Shown piece by piece: positions 14,601-51,057 of a DNA stretch of 64,000 nucleotides (position 1 is its first letter; every line of letters starts with the position of its first letter). Under the pieces are notes generated by a model. It saw only the letters and a program-made list of their open reading frames with translations. It was not told the DNA's origin and did no database searches. A program made the position numbers and the translations under genes. The stretch covers positions 6,386,001 to 6,450,000 of the forward strand of contig OX597816.1 in the NCBI GenBank assembly GCA_951406725.2, written 5' to 3'. The DNA is from Octopus vulgaris (taxonomy: Eukaryota).

Positions 14601-14664
<64 letters not shown>

Positions 14665-14802
14665 CGGAGATGTACTCGCATAGCAAGTAATTTGATCTGA
14701 GATCGTGTGCTGAAACGAAAACAATTGCAGCGTGGGAGGTGTTTATAAGCCATTTAAGAAACACACAAAAGCCGTTCGATTCACTCCAACATTTAAGTTT
14801 AA

Positions 14803-14852
14803 TTTGTCAAAATATTTTCGTCGCTAAAATCCGCGACCTGTTCACTGACAAA
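14803..14852 (-). ncRNA. Mirror copy of the G3-C8 minimal hammerhead in the left PLE arm
   Basis: Exact reverse complement of 18617-18666. Confidence 0.75.
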
Positions 14853-15828
14853 GTCCGTGCTGCATCTAAGAAAGTAACAGTTAGTTCGTCATATATATGT
14901 ATGTACGCATGTATGTGTGTATGTATGCATACATGTGTGTATGTATGTACGTATTCATGTCCGCACATACGCCTGTGTATGCATGTATGTATGTATGTAT
15001 GTATATATGTATGTGTGTGTATAAGCACGCACATACACTCTATAAAACATAAAGTTATAAACCTGTAGCGATGGATGGATGTAGAGTGACCACTCATCAC
15101 AACGCTATCAAATTTCAACTCCCTACGGCCGAGGCTAGAAAGTGAATTTATGACGCTTGCTCACAAGAACTATACCCTAAAATCTATTATCAGATTTTTA
15201 TCTCTATATCACAGAACTAATGTTTTACTATTGTTCGTATGTATGTATGTATGTGCGTATGTATGTATGTATGTATGTATGTATGTATGTATGTATGTAT
15301 GTATGTATGTATGTATGTATGTACATACGTACGCATGTGCGTATGTATGTATACGCGCCCGTATGCATGTGCCCATGTATGTGTGTGTGTACATGTACGT
15401 GCGTATGTACGTGTGTATGCCCATACGTAGGTATGTATGTATGTTTGTATTCATGTGCTACGTATGTATGTGAGTGTCTAGGAGAATGGGCAGATGTGTC
15501 CGTGAGAGTGTGTACATGTGTATGTGTATGTGAACGTATGTCCGTGTACTGGCATGTGTCCGTCCAAGTTGTGTACATGACTGTTACTTAGCTGAAGGTT
15601 GTATACATATTTACATATATGTTTGTATAGACGCACACACATATATATATATGTGTGTGGGTGTGTGTTTGTTCCTCTCATCGTCGTCTAACCGTGAATG
15701 GGTACAACGCCTAGGTGCGACTGTTCGTATCAAACAACGTCTGCTCATACCGTTGTATATAACTGCACATACGCATTGCAACCTGTATGTAAGGACTACA
15801 GGTGAAAGGGAGAGAGAGAGAGGGGTGG

Positions 15829-16722
15829 TTATAGAATAGTCCTTCTGAATGGGATCTGGATGTTATTCCATTCGGACTTTCGGTTGAGAGTAGGTTTGTA
15901 TTCTTGTATACAAACAGCTTCTGTGACCTGTCTCAACATTGCATCGGTGGGATGTGTAGATAGGATGTTCAACTTAAGCTCCCCTAAGGATCCCTTGTGG
16001 CAGTCTACAGCATGTTGGTAGAAGATGGAGTTTGGCTTCCTTTCAATGTAGTTGTCCAGGTGTTCTTTGAACCTATCATTGATGCTTCTAGAGGTCTCAC
16101 CTATGTATGACTCCGGGTTAGCCGCGCAAGCTCCCTCCTGGCACTTAATCTGGTATACAGTGCCCTTGGTTTTACAATTTACGTGTGGATTTGTCGAACA
16201 CACTGCACAATTACTCTGACAGGTGATTCTATCAAATGGATATGATCTGCATAATGCCGATTTGATAGTCCTACCTGTCTTTTCTACAACTTTAACTTTT
16301 AGGCCCGTAGTGCGCAGGACTTTCTTGAATGCCTTACTTAGCTCGTTCATAGGTGTGGCGTCAACGAACATCACTCCGTGAAATCTCCTGTTATCGTACC
16401 AAGTAACGTTTCTCATCTTTTTGTTGGTGTCCCTCTCTAACCTATTCCAGAACTTGTTGCGGTACAGGGGGCATATACCGTTTTCGTCGTTCCCTAGAAT
16501 GCGTTCGAATCTAGCTTTCGCTCCTTTGTACACCCTGACTCTATCGTCTTGTGTGTATCCGGAACGTTGCATTCGGAATATGTAGTGCTGGATGTGTTGT
16601 TGTCGTTCTTGTGGTTGGCATAGTGGTGATACATTCCTCATTACTCTAACTAAGTCTGCCACTAGGATGTTGAGTTTGGCAGTATCCGACACAGCTGAGT
16701 CACTACGGATTACTAGTGGATT
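15829..16722 (-). CDS. Uninterrupted C-terminal 297 codons of a PLE ORF (thumb, Cys-rich linker, GIY-YIG endonuclease); no true start
   Basis: CQSNCAVC...NC linker, then GTVYQIKC...SYIGETSRSINDRFKEH...RQVTEAVCIQEYKPTLNRKSEW, which are GIY-YIG motifs. The first 22 aa of the listed 319-aa ORF are only antisense of the right arm. Confidence 0.88.
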   Translation of the reverse strand, partial: NPLVIRSDSAVSDTAKLNILVADLVRVMRNVSPLCQPQERQQHIQHYIFRMQRSGYTQDDRVRVYKGAKARFERILGNDENGICPLYRNKFWNRLERDTNKKMRNVTWYDNRRFHGVMFVDATPMNELSKAFKKVLRTTGLKVKVVEKTGRTIKSALCRSYPFDRITCQSNCAVCSTNPHVNCKTKGTVYQIKCQEGACAANPESYIGETSRSINDRFKEHLDNYIERKPNSIFYQHAVDCHKGSLGELKLNILSTHPTDAMLRQVTEAVCIQEYKPTLNRKSEWNNIQIPFRRTIL

Positions 16723-17633
16723 ATACAACACATAGCTGACTCTATCCACAGCAGTATAAAACTTACCATAGACTACCCCTCTAGACACCCCAGTAAACGA
16801 TTACCCGTCCTAGATACTGAGCTATGGATGGAAGACGCTATAGTTAATGGTACCATTAAACCATGCATACTCCACTCACACTATCAGAAACCGATGGCTA
16901 ATCCACTAGTAATCCGTAGTGACTCAGCTGTGTCGGATACTGCCAAACTCAGATTCGAAAGCTTCTAGGGAACGACGAAAACGGTATATGCCCCCTGTAC
17001 CGCAACAAGTTCTGGAATAGGTTAGAGAGGGACACCAACAAAAAGATGAGAAACGTTACTTGGTACGATAACAGGAGATTTCACGGAGTGATGTTCGTTG
17101 ACGCCACACCTATGAACGAGCTAAGTAAGGCATTCAAGAAAGTCCTGCGCACTACGGGCCTAAAAGTTAAAGTTGTAGAAAAGACAGGTAGGACTATCAA
17201 ATCGGCATTATGCAGATCATATCCATTTGATAGAATCACCTGTCAGAGTAATTGTGCAGTGTGTTCGACAAATCCACACGTAAATTGTAAAACCAAGGGC
17301 ACTGTATACCAGATTAAGTGCCAGGAGGGAGCTTGCGCGGCTAACCCGGAGTCATACATAGGTGAGACCTCTAGAAGCATCAATGATAGGTTCAAAGAAC
17401 ACCTGGACAACTACATTGAAAGGAAGCCAAACTCCATCTTCTACCAACATGCTGTAGACTGCCACAAGGGATCCTTAGGGGAGCTTAAGTTGAACATCCT
17501 ATCTACACATCCCACCGATGCAATGTTGAGACAGGTCACAGAAGCTGTTTGTATACAAGAATACAAACCTACTCTCAACCGAAAGTCCGAATGGAATAAC
17601 ATCCAGATCCCATTCAGAAGGACTATTCTATAA
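16723..17633 (+). pseudogene. Disrupted PLE ORF: late RT motifs to GIY-YIG endonuclease
   Basis: From 16723 it reads IQHIADSIHSSIKLTIDYPSRHPSKRLPVLDTELW...HYQKPMAN, matching PLE RT C-terminal motifs (LPxLD, YxKP). There is a deletion at 16950/16951 and a 1-nt frameshift near 16960. The 195-aa ORF at 17046-17633 is identical to the left arm. Confidence 0.88.
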
Positions 17634-18616
17634 CCACCCCTCTCTCTCTCTCCCTCTCCCTGTAGTCCTTACATACAGGTTGCAATGCGTATGTGCAGTT
17701 ATATACAACGGTATGAGCAGACGTTGTTTGATACGAACAGTCGCACCTAGGCGTTGTACCCATTCACGGTTAGACGACGATGAGAGGAACAAACACACAC
17801 CCACACACATATATATATATGTGTGTGCGTCTATACAAACATATATGTAAATATGTATACAACCTTCAGCTAAGTAACAGTCATGTACACAACTTGGACG
17901 GACACATGCCAGTACACGGACATACGTTCACATACACATACACATGTACACACTCTCACGGACACATCTGCCCATTCTCCTAGACACTCACATACATACG
18001 TAGCACATGAATACAAACATACATACATACCTACGTATGGGCATACACACGTACATACGCACGTACATGTACACACACACATACATGGGCACATGCATAC
18101 GGGCGCGTATACATACATACGCACATGCGTACGTATGTACATACATACATACATACATACATACATACATACATACATACATACATACATACATACATAC
18201 ATACATACATACATACATACATACATACATACGAACAATAGTAAAACATTAGTTCTGTGATATAGAGATAAAAATCTGATAATAGATTTTAGGGTATAGT
18301 TCTTGTGAGCAAGCGTCATAAATTCACTTTCTAGCCTCGGCCGTAGGGAGTTGAAATTTAATAGCGTTGTGATGAGTGGTCACTCTACATCCATCCATCG
18401 CTACAGGTTTATAACTTTATGTTTTATAGAGTGTATGTGCGTGCTTATACACACACATACATATATACATACATACATACATACATGCATACACAGGCGT
18501 ATGTGCGGACATGAATACGTACATACATACACACATGTATGCATACATACACACATACATGCGTACATACATATATATGACGAACTAACTGTTACTTTCT
18601 TAGATGCAGCACGGAC

Positions 18617-18666
18617 TTTGTCAGTGAACAGGTCGCGGATTTTAGCGACGAAAATATTTTGACAAA
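18617..18666 (+). ncRNA. Minimal type I hammerhead ribozyme, G3-C8 core variant
   Basis: TTTGTCA (stem I) GTGAACA (core) G GTCGC-ggatttta-GCGAC (stem II) GAA AATATT (palindromic stem III) T (N17) TGACAAA (stem I'). Folded by eye. Confidence 0.75.
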
Positions 18667-18743
18667 TTAAACTTAAATGTTGGAGTGAATCGAACGGCTT
18701 TTGTGTGTTTCTTATATGGCTTATAAACACCTCCCACGCTGCA

Positions 18744-19359
<616 letters not shown>

Positions 19360-20327: not shown

Positions 20328-20760
20328 AGATGGAGAGCTGGCAGAATCGTTAGCACGACGGGCGAAATGCTAAGCGCTATGTTCTGAGTTCAAATTCCGC
20401 TGAGGGGCCAGTCAATTAGATCGACCTCAGTACGCAACTGGCACTTAATTTATCGACTGCGAAAGGATTAAAGGCAAAGTCAACCTCGACAGAATTTCAA
20501 CTCAGAACGTAGCGATGATCGAAATACCTATTTCTTTACAGCCCACAAGGAGCTACACACACAGGGGACAAACAAGGACAGACAAACAGATTAAGTCGAT
20601 TATATCGACCCCAGTGCGTAATTGGTACTTAATTTAGCGACCCCGAAAGGATGAAAGGCAAAGTCGACCCCGGCGGAATTTGAACTCAGAACGTAACCTC
20701 AGACGAAATACGGCCACGCGTTTCGCCCGGCGTGCTAACGATTCTGCCAGCTCGCCGCCT
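20328..20760 (-). mobile_element. SINE family B dimer (-) abutting a + strand head fragment (20328-20404)
   Basis: Junction GAAATACC|TATTTCTTT near 20521-20537. Confidence 0.8.
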
Positions 20761-21746
20761 TTTTATCGCTAAATAATTATGGTATTTGAGTTAAATTCGA
20801 TATTCCGATTTAAGTTTAAGTTTAATCGATTATATTCAACTCTTGATATCATAATTGAATCCGAGGTGGCAGAATTGTTACCGCGCCGGGCAAAATGCTT
20901 AACTGTAGTTCGTCTTTCTTTAGGTTCTTAGTTCAAATTACGCCGAGTTCGACTTAACATTTTTATCTCTTTCGGGATCGATAAAATATATACCAGTTGC
21001 ATACTGGTATCGATGAAATTGTTGCCTTTGTCCTGAAATTGTTGCCCTTGACCGAAATTTGAAATCGATATCATAATCGAACCCATTTCTTGTTATTTTA
21101 TTGCCATTTCGATCCGTTGTTCTAATGCTGGACCGTTTTAGTCTTATATTCTACTATTCACGCTGTGTTAAGCTCGAACTGACTTCATGCTTGCTCTGCC
21201 AGTTCTATTATTGCTCGCCTTATTCAAAAATATTTCCTTCACGCCATGTTATTCTACACCAATCCATTGACCCTTTAGAATGTTGTTGATGTGTCTTCTT
21301 ACTTATGTCGTGACTAATATAATGTTGCATGTCATGTACCAACTCTATATTATTCAGCAGTGCCTTGTGTTTATCGGTTGAAAATGCCATAAATTATGTT
21401 CGCTATTCAGATATTCAACTATTCCCATAAGAGGTCTCTTGACAAAGAAATAAATTCTTATTGTTGTGGACAGATTATCAATTCGATTAGAATCCGAAAA
21501 CTAGCTTCTGGTCTAGCTAACAATCTCTTTATTGATCTGTCATTCATACTGCATTTATAATGTAAAATTTCGAGGCCTAATTATGAAACCATTCACTTAA
21601 TTATTCAACAAATTTTAATCGTTGTAGTAACCCACTTCTAACAATCTCGCTTCGCAGCTTTCTAACCTACTCTGCTGCCTATGAAACTAATATTAAATAT
21701 ATTCCGATACTTTTTATTCTCAATTACATTAATCGCTCTCTCTCTC

Positions 21747-25567: not shown

Positions 25568-26679
25568 CTCTACACTATTCCTAGCGGACTATTAAAACTA
25601 AATAACACAACACATATAACATCTAAGAATATAATCACCGATCTCCACCACCACCATCATCCTAACCACCACAAAAAGTAACTCGACTCACAGAGGACAT
25701 CAAAATCACAGTTGCCCTAATATCCTGGAACCAAAGAAGTTCAGGCGCTCCAAAGTGACCCGGACAGTGTCCATGTCTCACAACTACAGAGCGAGACAGG
25801 GAAAAACCATAGATCTAAAGACCCGATTTCTTTCCTTCTGTACAAAAACTGGCAGCGCCAAACATCTTTGTCCAATGAGCCTACAACTGCAGCGAGCTGG
25901 CAGAAACGTTAGCACACCGGGCGAAATACCTGGTGGTATTTCGTCTGCCGTTACGTTCTGAGTTCAAATTCTGCCGAGGTCGACTTTGCCTTTCATCCTT
26001 TCGGGGTCGATAAATAAAGTACCAGTTACGCACTGGGTTCGATGTAACCAACTTAATCCCTTTGTCTGTCCTTGTTTGTTCCCTCTATGTTTAGCCCCTT
26101 GTGGGCATTAAAAAATATGATTACCATTGATCGCGTTTCGTATCCAACCAATGGTTCTACTCAGAAGCTGGAATGCATCTTCTTGTACGATGCGGGTGCA
26201 CCAGCTCAGACTTCTTACTAAGTTGCTTGATTTTCTGAGTTAGACCCTGCTTACCGTGTTCTCTTCACGGCTGGGTTGACGGCTTGTGTTGGTCAACCAC
26301 ATCCCACATGGAAGATGAGGATGTATCTCACAGAGATGGAGACTGACTGGGACTTGAGTCGACGGATCGCCCGGGAGGACCCAGGAATATACCGATAAAT
26401 GGTGAATACAGCAATGCACAGCAACGGCGATACATGGCCCAAACATCCGAGCTGACATGATAAAACAACTTACAGAAGACATATTTGACGAAGTAAACAG
26501 ACGAAATTTTAAAGTAAAGCCAGGGAAAAAAGCAACCAAATTCCACAAAGTCTATAGACACTAACTTCTACATCCTTCAAGAATGATTCTGTACACATCT
26601 CAGGTATATAGAGGTGCACCTGGTGGTACAACATAAATTCATGTCGAATGGTTGAAAACAAGAGAACTTCTAACAAAGG

Positions 26680-31843: not shown

Positions 31844-32030
31844 AGTGAACAGGTCACGGTCTCAAAGCGACGAAAATATTTTGACACAAATCAAATTTAA
31901 ATGTTGAAGTGAAACTAACGGTTTTTGTGTGTTCTTGAATGGCTTACAAACATCTTCCACGCACCAATTGTTTTTGTTTCAGCACACGATCTCAGATCAA
32001 GTCACTTGCTATGCAAGTACATCTCCGTAA
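31844..32030 (+). mobile_element. Diverged 3'-terminal fragment of the same PLE family, starting at the hammerhead core
   Basis: AGTGAACAGGTCAC...GCGACGAAAATATTTTGACA...GTACATCTCCGTAA aligns to the reverse complement of 14662-14846. Confidence 0.85.
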
Positions 32031-33826: not shown

Positions 33827-35575
33827 TGAGAGAGAATCAAAGAAAGCGATAACTAATTGTTAAGAGGTTAACGAATCGAAATACGAGAACACTCAAACAT
33901 CTCTCTTAATTTATTTGTGCATTTTTATGTAATTTAGTCCAATATTTAATGTATTTCCTTCTGATCTAGTCGTACATTAATTTGTGTAAATACTGTAAAA
34001 TATCGCAGATGAACATTTTTACGGAGCGCTTTGTCGAAATTCCCTGGTAAGTAGTTCTTAACTGACCTAAAGTTAGTAAATTCTGAAATTTCTTATCACA
34101 TCGAAAAACTCACCAATGTTCTTTCTGGTAGATTAACCTTTCGTAGTCACCGATATAAAAACGGAGTCAAAGGGTTAATATTTGTTTCGTGAGATCAGCA
34201 GTTTTGTCTAAAGAATCGATTGTCTTTGACTTTATATCTTCCTTCCAAACACAATTCATCTGACCTGTTCACCTAGCTTCATTTGTTACATAAGCTGCTT
34301 CTTATACTGTTAATACTTTGTGGCGTTAACTTGTTCCGCATCCAACCGGTGACTGTGATGTCTGATTTTCGCTGGGGATAATTATCTATTGTTTTGCTGC
34401 TAGATACGATTCACTGCATAATAGAATATATCTGCTGAACTGAAAGGGTTCTCCGGGAAAACCTCGTCTACTATTCACTTTAATAAACTTTGCGATACAC
34501 TAATTAATATCGTTTGTTTCTATGAACAATACGCTACTGCAGACAAAGACTGGGATGCAACGATTTTACAGCCGACACAGCTATTCACATGATTAATAAA
34601 AGAAATAAATATTTGTGATATAATATTTATATTTTCGTTGGTTTCTAAATCATTTTAATGCCTATAAAACGACATGACTACACGGCTGACTGAAGCTAAA
34701 GTATTTTAACTAACTTCTTGTCCATAATGACTGGTCAACCATTTCGTTGTTGATTTTCATTGTAGTTTTTACTATGAGAATGTAAGATGGCGTTTGCAGA
34801 ATTTATATGGCTTCCCAAACCGGGAGAGAGCTTCGTATGGAGAAGGTTAGTACGGCTAATGTTTAAGGTGAACTTTTAAATGACAGTAGTTGCAAAATAA
34901 AATATAAAATAATTTATAAAACTGAGAAAAGTATATCGGTTATGTTGGCCAGAAGATTTACAATTATAGTGGCTGTGTATTAAAAGAACAGAAAGGAAGA
35001 ACTTAAACCAACATTATTATTCCAAAGGTTGTGTGAAACAAAACTTGATGCGAAACAGAAGTATTTGAAGAAATATTATTTTTATAGTTACTATAACAGT
35101 CATTGGATGTGGAGGCACGTGGGTTAAGGGTTAGTGTGTTAGACTCATCCTCGTAAGATTGTGGTTTCCATTCCAATACCTGGTGACGGTTCACTCAACT
35201 GGCAACAATGAGTAATCTTAAGGCGGCGAGATGGCAGAAACGTTAGCACACCGGGCGAAATGCTTAGCGGTGTTTCGTCTGCCGTTACGTTCTGAGTTCA
35301 ATTTCCGCCGAGGTCGACTTTGTCTTTCATCCTTTCGGGGTCGATTAAATAAGTACCAGTTACGCACTGGGATCGATATAATCGACTTAATCCGTTTGTC
35401 TGTCCTTGTTTGTCCCCTCTAGATTTAGCTCCCTGAGGGCAACAAAGAAATAAGTAATGAGTAATATTGCGACGGACCGATGTCTCGTCCGGTAAAGAAT
35501 ATATGCGCCATAGAATCTGGGAAACCGCCTTAAGAGAAACCAGGAAACCGCCTTACTCGTAAAGGATCTTTATCA

Positions 35576-45699: not shown

Positions 45700-47640
45700 T
45701 TCATGGTGTGCACGATTTTTGTATATTCGGAATCAATATTCTTGATACCAGGTCACAACCAGTTTCCTCAGATATCAAGGACCTTCCTTAAGATCTTTGC
45801 TATTCCCAATAAAGCAGATTTCTGAATTAATGCAACTGTCGTAATTGTATTATGGAACTGCTACGTCTGTTGGTGACGGAACCTTACGGCACCTGTAACA
45901 ACAAGGATTACTTTTGTAGAAACCCTTCGTAGTCCTCATATCTCCCTACCCAAATCCTGGTATTTTTTCTATTTACTCCTTTTCTTTGGCCGCTACATTC
46001 AATTCTGCAGATATAGCCACATCTATGATGATGCACACTTTTCCCCCCTTGTTAACAGTAATATCTGGTCATCTGGTATGAATTTATCGATCATTAAAAT
46101 CTGTACATTAAAATCGCATTAAGTCGTGTATTAACCGTTCGCTATTATACTTTCTGGTTGATATTCTTTTCTTCCTACATGAAATCCTCTTTGCCGTAAT
46201 ATGTCCCAGTGTAGGGACTTCGTCACATAATCGTGTTTCTGTCTATATATTCCTTCTGTGCAAAAGACCTATATGAACTTATTATGTGCATAACGGTTTC
46301 CTGTTTCTCATTGCATACTTTGAACTTTGCACTTTTCTCCGATTTGTCTATTTTGGCTTTAATGATATTCGTCCGGCGGCGAGCTGGCAGAAACGTTAGG
46401 ACGCCGGGCGAAATGCTTTGCGGTATTTCGTCTGCCGTTACGTTCTGAGTTCGAATTCCGCCGAGGTCGACATTGCCTTTCATGCTACCGGGGTCGATAA
46501 ATTAAGTACCAGTTATGCACTGGGGTCGATGTAATCGACTTAATCCGTTTGTCTGTCCTTGTTTGTCCCCTCTGTGTTTAGCCCCTTTTGGGTAGTAACG
46601 AAATAGGTATTTCGTATGCCGCTACGTTCTGAGTTCGAATTCCGCCGAGGTCGACTTTGCCTTTCATCTTTTCGGGGTCGATAAATTAAGTACCAGTTAT
46701 GCACTGGGGTCGATGTAATCGACTTAATCCGTTTGTCTGTCCTTGTTAGTCCCCTCTGTGTTTAGCCCCTTTTGGGTAGTAAAGAAATAGGGATTTCGTC
46801 TGCCGGTACGTTCTGATTTCAAGTTCCGCCGCGGTCGACTTTGCCTTTCATCTTTTCGGGGTCGATAAAATTAAGTACCAGTTACGCACTGGGGTCGATG
46901 TAATCGACTTAATCCGTTTTTCTGTCCTTGTTTGTCTTCTCTGTGTTTAGCCCCTTGTGGGTAGTAAACAAATAGATATTCGTCCGCAACGACTGACTTC
47001 GAGCAGTCATTATGAGTCTTGTTTATTCCTTAAGCTCTCCATTCTTCAGCCATCACCAAGACACCTCTGCTGCAACGTCCTGCGTTTCCCTGAGGTGCTG
47101 GCCCTGTAGTTATTTTCCCCAGATGCTTCTTTCTTTCTTTCGCGCTCCTGTTTTCTTTTCGTGTATCCCGTTGCCGTCTCTGCAGTTTCCTTCTCCTCTC
47201 GTCTGGCGACTGAAACCGGACATTCTGGATTGCTTTTCACTTACTCTTCTATACCACGTCTTGCCAAACCTAGACTGTTTGATGTCTTCAATTGATATCA
47301 GTCCTCTCCTCCGCCTTCTATGGTGGGTATAATCCAATCGACACCGTTTCTGGGGTGTAACGACCTGTACACGGACATTATCTTTCTGGTCTAGCATCAG
47401 AATATCTTATTAGAGACGCCGCCCAAGTTTTTACTGCACAGATGTTTTTCTCTCTACTCAGTTTTGAGACTAGCACCCTTTTTACTCCCCTGAGATATCC
47501 GGTTCTCTTGGCAGAGAATTCTACCTGCCTCCAATACGCCTAGATACATATAGCTGTCACCCTCATTGTCGATGTCTTATTTGCGAATTTAAACCCTTCT
47601 CACTTGGATATTTTTCTCGCTTTATCACTTGCATTTCACA
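45700..47640 (-). mobile_element. Degenerate R4/Dong-type LINE interrupted by a SINE trimer at 46376-46974
   Basis: KAKIDKS...KVCNEKQETVMHIISS...AQKEY (decayed CCHC), RPDI, EKYQDL and QKSALLGIAKILRKVLDI*. The 46987-47640 continuation is less certain. Confidence 0.7.
46376..46974 (+). mobile_element. SINE family B trimer (one head, three units of about 184 bp)
   Basis: 12-bp TSD GATATTCGTCCG at 46364-46375 and 46975-46986. Confidence 0.92.
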
Positions 47641-47991: not shown

Positions 47992-48218
47992 AGGTGGCGA
48001 GCTGGCAGAAACGTTAGCCGGGCGAAATGCTTAGCGATATTTCGTCTGCCGTTACGTTCCGAGTTCAAATTCCGCCGAGGTCGACTTTGCCTTTCATCCT
48101 TTCGAGGTCGATTAAATAAGTACCAGTTACGCACTGGGGTCGATGTAATCGACTTAATCCGTTTGTCTGCCCTTGTTTTTCCTTTCTGTGTTTAACCCCT
48201 TGTGGGAAATAAAGAAAT

Positions 48219-48219
<1 letters not shown>
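47728..48219 (+). mobile_element. Two full SINE family B copies separated and flanked by (TAG)n
   Basis: Copies at 47728-47948 and 47991-48219. Confidence 0.9.
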
Positions 48220-50074: not shown

Positions 50075-50469
50075 CCTTTCTACTCTGACTACAAGGCCTG
50101 ATATTTTCGAGAAAGGGGCCAGTCGATTAGATCGACCCCAGTACGCAACTGGTACTTAATTTATCGACCCCGAAAGGATAAAAGGCAAAGTCGACCACGG
50201 TGGAATTTGAACTCAGCGGCAGACGAAATACCTATTTCTATTCCTTTACTACCCACAAGGGGCTAAACACAGAGAGGACAAACAAAGACAGACAAACGGA
50301 TTAAGTCGATTATATCGACCCCAGTGTGTGACAGGTACTTATTTAATCGATCTCGAAAGGATGAAAGGCCAAGTCGACCTCGGCGGAATTTGAACTCAGA
50401 ACGTAACGGCAGACCAAATACCACTAAGCATTTCACCCGGCGTGCTAACAATTCTGCCAGCTCGCCGCC
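50075..50469 (-). mobile_element. SINE family B dimer with two different tail types
   Basis: 18-bp TSD TATTAAGTCCyAGGTAAT at 50057-50074 and 50470-50487. Confidence 0.88.
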
Positions 50470-51057
50470 TATTAAGTCCTAGGTAATGACATGTGTTGAG
50501 TATGATACTGGACAGAGGTGCTAATACTTCGCAGGTGGTGTTATTATTTTCAGTAAGACGGAGATGGCAGGATCGTTTGAGCGTTGCAAGTAATGGTTTG
50601 TAGTATTTCCTTTGGCTCTTTACCTTCTGAGTTCAAACCCTACAAAGGTTAACTTTGCCTTTCATCGTTTTAGAATCGATAAGATGAAATAGCAGTCAAG
50701 TCCCACGACTGACTAACCCCCTCCCCTCAAAATCGCTGGACTTAAATCTGAAATGAAAATAACAATTTTCCTCATCATCTTCTTCATCATCATCCATAGA
50801 GTTTGTACAGTCGTCTATGTGTGTGCCATATCATTCAGCCCGATTCCAATCACTTCAGGTGGGATACACGCTTGCCAATGATCGGGGTGCCATTAGAGGT
50901 AACTCAATTTGCTATAAATAGCAGCCAAATCTCCCACAAATTACACCCTAGCGTCTTAAAAGGAAAAGAATACATTACAATAAGTACTCCAACATAGACT
51001 TACAAAGGCAAGATGGCCGGAGCTAAAATGCCTTTCTTCATTTCGTTTCTCCATTGA

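Follow-up and report, generated by a model that had tools for sequence, protein, structure and literature searches.

A natural G3-C8 variant of the minimal hammerhead in a Penelope-like element family of Octopus vulgaris

Nucleotides 3 and 8 of the hammerhead ribozyme form a tertiary pair that is established by crystallography and by engineered rescue. The closest described relatives of the motif analysed here are the minimal hammerheads (min-HHRs) of Penelope-like elements, which lie in the pLTRs, carry an unpaired base that separates position 9 from 10.1 (H in the consensus), a G10.1-C11.1 pair, a palindromic helix III and U or C at position 17, and occur as thousands of solo copies and as inverted pairs (Cervera and de la Peña 2014, PMC4209133). 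Such motifs are described as cutting weakly and as dimers only (PMC4209133; review PMC6765202), and dimer-cleaving Penelope variants with a short palindromic stem III are known from the title of Lünse, Weinberg and Breaker (2017) and from the same review. Natural covariation of the 3-8 pair has been published as U3-A8, both for the Schistosoma min-HHR (PMC4209133) and for phage and bacterial hammerheads, which are described with this variant only and are mostly monomeric motifs with a full stem III (Perreault et al. 2011, PMC3088659). The G3-C8 pair appears in the published work as a laboratory variant (PMC11167929; PMC3884650); in the Anolis Poseidon element PAc, the C3G/G8C exchange partly restores cleavage (Frangieh et al. 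2024, PMC11167929). The hammerhead of PAc sits at the pLTR-ORF junction with the ORF start inside stem II, is cut only in the presence of the protein and is not needed for insertion; the element has two 3' ends within the ORF start (a tail) and uses uncut RNA as template (PMC11167929). Non-LTR retrozymes, finally, are derived from Penelope pLTRs and consist of tandem hammerhead units without an ORF (bioRxiv 10.64898/2026.07.22.740005).

A sequence-only reading of 64,000 nucleotides of the Octopus vulgaris genome (contig OX597816.1; this whole stretch is the window below) had parsed one site completely as a type I hammerhead. We find the parse borne out exactly, in its stems, core, palindrome and U17 (Table 1). 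The hammerhead is also the minimum-energy fold (-14.7 kcal/mol, z = -3.4; 1 of 200 shuffles was equally good), and the window contains three matches to the pattern against 0.30 expected. The invariant positions U4, G5, A6, A9, G12, A13, A14, A15.1-U16.1, H17 and G10.1-C11.1 are all kept, which is likewise the majority state in the family, so that the departure from the hammerhead core is limited to positions 3 and 8, where the two changed bases are complementary. The strict CUGANGA consensus (C3, G8) is found in none of 100 listed copies of the octopus motif. A comparison with Rfam, as the reading had called for, gave no match of the hammerhead models at the gathering score or at E values up to 10, the search returning otherwise only three chance matches (E 1.8-6.1); its expectation that CTGANGA searches would miss the motif thus holds for CUGANGA descriptors and for Rfam alike. 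The extra nucleotide between 9 and 10.1, the G10.1-C11.1 pair, the palindromic helix III and the pLTR position are those of the minimal Penelope type, and the motif is almost certainly a homolog of the Penelope-associated minimal type I hammerhead. The extra G had been singled out before; it is present but not special, since an extra nucleotide here is standard in Penelope hammerheads, the octopus base being G where the min-HHR consensus has H (PMC4209133). Stem III is weak: its duplex is worth -0.2 kcal/mol, and a modelled dimer, at -27.2 kcal/mol, falls 2.2 kcal/mol short of the stability of two monomers (-29.4 kcal/mol). U17 and the extra G are both unfavourable to the cleavage rate.

Table 1. 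Features of the hammerhead motif, its element and neighbouring repeats in the window
Feature	Position	Strand	Basis or remark
Minimal type I hammerhead fold, G3-C8 core	18617..18666	+	parse, fold prediction, cross-family comparison
Stem I, 5' strand, 7 bp	18617..18623	+	partner 18660-18666; parse and fold
Core GUGAACA, positions 3-9	18624-18630	+	G3 = 18624, C8 = 18629
Extra G between 9 and 10.1	18631	+	parse
Stem II (5 bp) and loop 2	18632..18649	+	strands 18632-36/18645-49, G10.1-C11.1 closing pair
GAAA (18650-53, containing G12-A13-A14), stem III and U17	18650..18659	+	sequence
Palindromic stem III, AAUAUU	18653-18658	+	parse
U17 and predicted cut	18659; 18659/18660	+	hammerhead numbering
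5'-end cluster of short genomic copies	18598..18605	+	start near A18602 inferred
Upstream ORF, 7 codons	18604..18627	+	frame 1 of tandem locus L143 and parse; stop = core U4-G5-A6
First ORF codons; also first of the family's two 3' ends	18716..18748	+	continues into full ORF in L143
5'-truncated Penelope-like copy	16963..18748	+	GIY-YIG end of ORF (to 17633), 1.1-kb UTR, then (TA)n
Inverted 5'-truncated twin copy, 60-nt tail	14661..16800	-	ORF remnant 15829-16800; (TA)n before it on +
Second, identical G3-C8 hammerhead, in twin	14803..14852	-	pattern match and fold
Decayed short copy, older subfamily	31845..32030	+	G3-C8 core kept, stem I 5' strand lost, tail present
Dispersed-repeat copies	2543-2891, 20410-20765, 25882-26115, 35220-35456	both among copies	
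Dispersed-repeat copies, continued	46375-46869, 48017-48219, 50238-50470	both among copies	

The motif lies in one arm of an inverted pair of Penelope-like copies that face each other and have (TA)n on both flanks. A repeat search of the window was dominated by microsatellites, the inverted arms being the useful part of its output. The hammerhead of the twin is absent from the earlier reading; over 169 nt the two copies differ by a single base. Both encode the C-terminal GIY-YIG part of the ORF, and a near-full copy elsewhere (L091) has an open frame of 1,025 codons with a GIY-YIG match above the cut-off and homologs of its RT region. A single long ORF with RT and C-terminal GIY-YIG, partial tandems (pLTR), an inverted 5'-truncated partner and an optional tail are all hallmarks of EN+ Penelope-like elements. 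In addition, the protein has a CX3CxxC linker between RT and EN and the element inserts at (TA)n; a CX2-5CxxC linker and (TA)n targets mark the Neptune/Nematis group (PMC8557442). By these two marks the element would be classed as Neptune/Nematis-type, and its Cys linker sets it apart from PAc (PMC11167929). The family is young, as many of its endonuclease copies are 100% identical, and a protein named from Octopus vulgaris matches that of the element at 100%. Since both copies in the window are truncated and they lie in opposite orientations, this insertion is probably inert. The 13 other ORFs of the window gave a single sub-threshold Pfam match and no identifiable host exon. A dispersed repeat of 230-350 bp, with copies 86-93% alike in both orientations, probably represents a SINE-like family (Table 1).

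The place of the motif within the element is best seen at the tandem locus L143, where it is followed by the 60-nt tail and then by the ORF, whose first ATG corresponds to position 18716, 56 nt past the predicted cut. The motif is therefore a pLTR feature, belonging to the 3' UTR of the upstream copy and to the 5' leader of the downstream one; in tandem elements, where the ORF starts 56 nt further on, it counts functionally as 5' UTR. The earlier assignment to a Penelope-like element stands, whereas its label "3' UTR" describes the position less well than pLTR or 5' UTR of tandem elements. As in PAc, the junction of pLTR and ORF carries the hammerhead, and the two 3' ends of the family both lie within the ORF start; the ORF start itself, inside stem II in PAc, follows the predicted cut by those 56 nt in the octopus element (PMC11167929). 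The motif had also been placed about 150 nt before the end of its element, which does not apply to this copy: its last base is 18748, 82 nt beyond stem I, and a distance of about 150 nt matches the longer end with the tail that the twin and the 31845 copy show. That last copy had been offered as a sign of a family-level trait. Its core is indeed kept, but the 5' strand of stem I is gone, stem II contains a mismatch and the hammerhead is not formed (z = +1.3); the family trait is shown instead by genome counts.

Searching 2.8 Gb of genome for the core plus the 3' half of the motif retrieved 6,916 exact matches and none in the reversed control. With eight core letters left free the matches rose to 7,134 (control 38), and of the first 100 of these, counted by hand, 83 read GTGAACAG and none CTGANGAG; G3 was present in 97 and C8 in 97. 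All 19 C3-G8 matches with the immediate flanks of the octopus family came from other families (0 of 19 from its own). Long copies whose endonuclease regions are as little as approximately 83% identical in DNA still have G3-C8. Subfamilies differ in loop 2 and in the flanks, and a comparison of contigs across four runs found, among the rows listed, differences in loop 2 and flanks and none at position 3 or 8. The same comparison gave no pile-up of starts or ends and no splice joint, neither of which contigs would reveal. G3-C8 is thus a family-level state, proved by the genome counts, and the possibility raised earlier that the family consensus might be CTGANGA is answered in favour of G3-C8.

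The core and stems had also been expected to be more conserved than the flanking UTR, and this is borne out, modestly, in 48 older copies chosen by protein or flank regardless of the motif. At a cut of at least 15%, 1 of 35 non-CpG stem or core sites was polymorphic against 11 of 67 loop or flank sites (p = 0.038; p = 0.077 at a 10% cut and 0.019 at 20%), and at the sole polymorphic stem site pairing was kept as U·G. This unbiased set is small and old, since what the downstream anchor hit was an older subfamily only (425 hits; control, 112). A minority of copies have lost the 3-8 pair. The G3·G8 mismatch occurs in 241 copies, whereas A8 and U8 taken together account for 181, the first 100 of which comprise 29 with A and 71 with U; 30 G3·G8 copies that were examined (L377-L406) all came from older subfamilies. 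In some inverted pairs the mismatch is common to both members and in others it is not; since some pairs share it, mismatch templates were probably copied. The excess of G3·G8 may also stem from a mutational hot spot or from exchange with C3-G8 families. The idea that G3·G8 copies are a basal intermediate finds no support: of the two such copies in a 25-row tree, with no outgroup aligned, one is placed within the C8 copies and the other has decayed more than any other row. At G000:C2:171239233, 171242643 and 171246098, three matches approximately 3.4 kb apart have A8, probably because a mutant copy was amplified locally in tandem.

The same fold with a C3-G8 core, at the same place before the ORF start, is found in an octopus sister family that is 55% identical over RT-EN. 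With the stem II ends kept the same, a canonical pattern hit 1,716 places (5 in the control), which belong to several more families; ORF remnants were present at 5 of 30 loci examined. Among 54 metagenomic relatives the motif could be parsed at 10 loci, with G3-C8 at none; three of the loci (L286, L288 and L302) have a C3-G8 hammerhead with the extra G directly after the ORF. At another metagenomic Penelope-related locus, L331:5650-5715, the ORF is followed by what may be a U3-A8 minimal hammerhead. In a set of 14 hand-registered representatives (two of the G3-C8 family, six other octopus and six metagenomic), the 3-8 pair is Watson-Crick in every one, 12 times C-G and twice G-C. All 14 likewise keep the inner three pairs of both stem I and stem II, with double changes among them; 12 have G as the extra base and 9 have U as N17. 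In stem III, only 12 of 14 keep the second pair and only 8 of 13 the third. A MAFFT alignment of 11 motifs from the octopus genome itself, three of them decayed single copies, pairs in 94.7% of 132 cells (slid controls 20-47%), with 5 of 12 pairs changed on both sides, figures that are not probabilities because the rows are related and the structure was taken from one row. The 3-8 swap is a single evolutionary event and so cannot reach statistical covariation alone. The swap is real: against C3-G8 sister families at the same position, the earlier interpretation of G3-C8 as a compensatory double change is supported. Because sister families and metagenomic relatives carry C3-G8, the G3-C8 state is most simply, and probably, derived from it. 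A sister family that is both young and abundant, its frame of 1,312 codons intact, has A9C in 53 of 53 motifs (L170:4639-4690 and 29 other loci, L165-L194), whereas its older relatives keep A9.

Natural 3-8 covariation in Penelope hammerheads (U3-A8) and an engineered, partly active G3-C8 are thus already known. What appears to be new is a natural Penelope hammerhead with G3-C8, to be classed as a variant like the accepted U3-A8 members. Within the literature searched, to which Lünse et al. (2017) and Przybilski and Hammann (2007) do not belong, we found no natural G3-C8 hammerhead and no octopus hammerhead, and the representative motifs in Fig. S3 of PMC4209133 include no G3-C8. Whereas G3-C8 is an engineered, partly active rescue in PAc (PMC11167929), it is the natural state of approximately 7,000 octopus copies; to the natural 3-8 pairs C-G and U-A of the literature searched, G-C can now be added from a very large and recently active family. 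The octopus motif is neither new chemistry nor a new kind of element; the case is distinctive in its copy number and in the C3-G8 orthologs of the same genome. Thousands of motifs escape CUGANGA descriptors and Rfam in this one genome, which offers a natural series (the G-C family, its C-G sisters, the mismatch minority and the A9C lineage) well suited to the question of whether Penelope hammerheads need to cut.

The 5' ends of genomic copies bear on this question. In a set of short copies chosen by the core, 37 of 67 start in the cluster just upstream of stem I (Table 1), and only 3 of 273 copies overall, and 0 of 29 downstream-anchored ones, start near the predicted cut (18656-18664). Since short copies begin upstream of the predicted cut, their templates were uncut, and uncut RNA appears to be used for reverse transcription, as in PAc (PMC11167929). 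In 21 of the 32 junctions that keep AG an extra G stands before it, a count that inversion microhomology may inflate. We infer from it a copied cap and a transcription start near A18602, approximately 15 nt upstream of stem I, in preference to a splice acceptor. Such an acceptor, at 18603, could also explain the ends. A branch-point-like and pyrimidine-rich motif ending in AG (18584-18603) lies just upstream of the copy 5' ends. Taken together, the upstream 5' ends, the G3·G8 copies, the A9C sister family and the marginal stem III suggest that cleavage is not required for insertion, and from the uncut genomic copies and the spread of G3·G8 and A9C elements it looks dispensable for retrotransposition.

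How the motif might act can be framed by published work, in which the role of base falls to G12 and that of acid to the 2'-OH of nucleotide 8, which the 3-8 pair positions; G8C is crippling and C3G gives partial rescue (PMC8495972, PMC6155905, PMC6257768). With the reversed pair the active-site geometry would be kept. Given the published weak, dimer-only cutting and the protein-dependent rescue, slow, dimer- or protein-assisted cleavage is to be expected. The pLTR hammerhead with G3-C8 likely cuts its own RNA slowly after U17 as a dimer, probably aided by the element's protein; with somewhat more confidence, we would predict measurable cleavage of a dimer or of a version with a stabilised stem III. 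Two copies would pair through the palindromic stem III, and the second motif in the 3' pLTR of the same transcript could be the partner. In a transcript driven by the pLTR, the cut would take off a 58-nt capped piece carrying the seven-codon upstream ORF; the leader that is left, 56 nt long with one upstream ORF of three codons, would be on a 5'-OH RNA destined for translation or turnover. Since the RNA that is reverse-transcribed appears to be uncut, cleavage would serve to tune expression or the processing of the RNA and would not define the inserted copy. In viral and reporter RNAs, a 5' UTR that cleaves itself can bring about translation independent of a cap (PMC13725137), and by analogy the octopus leader might be translated in this way; a role in leader processing is a tentative proposal.

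The strongest competitor of slow self-cleavage is that the motif, a hammerhead by descent, has kept its fold for a non-catalytic job such as protein binding, an internal promoter or a leader structure, with G3-C8 as a structural contact and negligible cleavage in vivo. The uncut 5' ends, the spread of G3·G8 copies and of the A9C family and the weak stem III all agree with it. The motif, moreover, lies 15-64 nt past the inferred start, where Drosophila Penelope has an internal promoter (PMC2377424); hammerhead mutants insert unimpaired in vitro (PMC11167929) and Naiads thrive without hammerheads (PMC8557442). However, it is in the cleavage-ready core that the 3-8 pair counts, and this pair has been kept Watson-Crick, every catalytic position is fixed across families whose flanks cannot be aligned, a DNA promoter would have no need of covarying stems, and uncut templates are the rule even for the canonical, cleaving Penelope hammerhead (PMC11167929). 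We consider this alternative unlikely, if worth keeping in mind. Neutral decay would have an ancestral master lose its ribozyme by two unrelated, by chance complementary substitutions, the relic then hitchhiking on a successful element. Mismatch intermediates are evidently copyable, conservation within the family is only modest and copies after insertion are not under selection, but this reading is very improbable: of about 12 invariant positions the changes fall on precisely the two that pair, and they restore a pair, and G3-C8 holds to approximately 83% endonuclease-region identity while loop 2 and the flanks have changed. Least probable is efficient cis cutting by the monomer, defining the RNA 5' end through an unrecognised contact of stem I and loop 2: the 91-nt fold has a possible distal extension of stem I that could serve it, but a 6-nt palindrome makes no stable hairpin, copies do not start at the predicted cut and, in published work, monomeric minimal Penelope hammerheads fail to cut (PMC4209133).

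The G3-C8 pair may not be confined to the octopus. A general G3-C8 pattern applied to viral contigs gave 120 sampled loci of which three could be parsed, two convincingly, against one weak parse in 120 for a non-pairing A3·C8 control. The two, L462:51-113 and L455 (minus strand), are unrelated contigs with complete predicted G3-C8 folds and a long stem III, and a tighter pattern retrieved L462 alone again, among three. The octopus family's own pattern hit 38 loci in viral contigs, with a convincing full fold at none. The two convincing folds indicate, as judged from their predicted structures, that G3-C8 recurs in nature, and L462 and L455 would be good monomer substrates for an activity test. 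A bolder and rather doubtful reading is that an active G3-C8 lineage crossed a fitness valley through copy-competent G3·G8 elements, the valley being crossable because cleavage is uncoupled from retrotransposition, and has been maintained since cutting takes the cap off the leader and thereby permits the RT-endonuclease to be translated. Taken with the phage cases, this would make G3-C8 a third allowed core, a recurrent one that consensus searches have systematically missed.

The copies in the window are dispersed, truncated pieces of an autonomous element and in this differ from non-LTR retrozymes. Tandem hammerhead units without an ORF were found at one locus alone, L156:1750-3090, an array of eight units of approximately 170-190 bp with a G3-C8 motif in each, which resembles the retrozyme arrangement (bioRxiv 10.64898/2026.07.22.740005). 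The base at 11.1 is changed in six of its eight units, and G12 is changed in the last.
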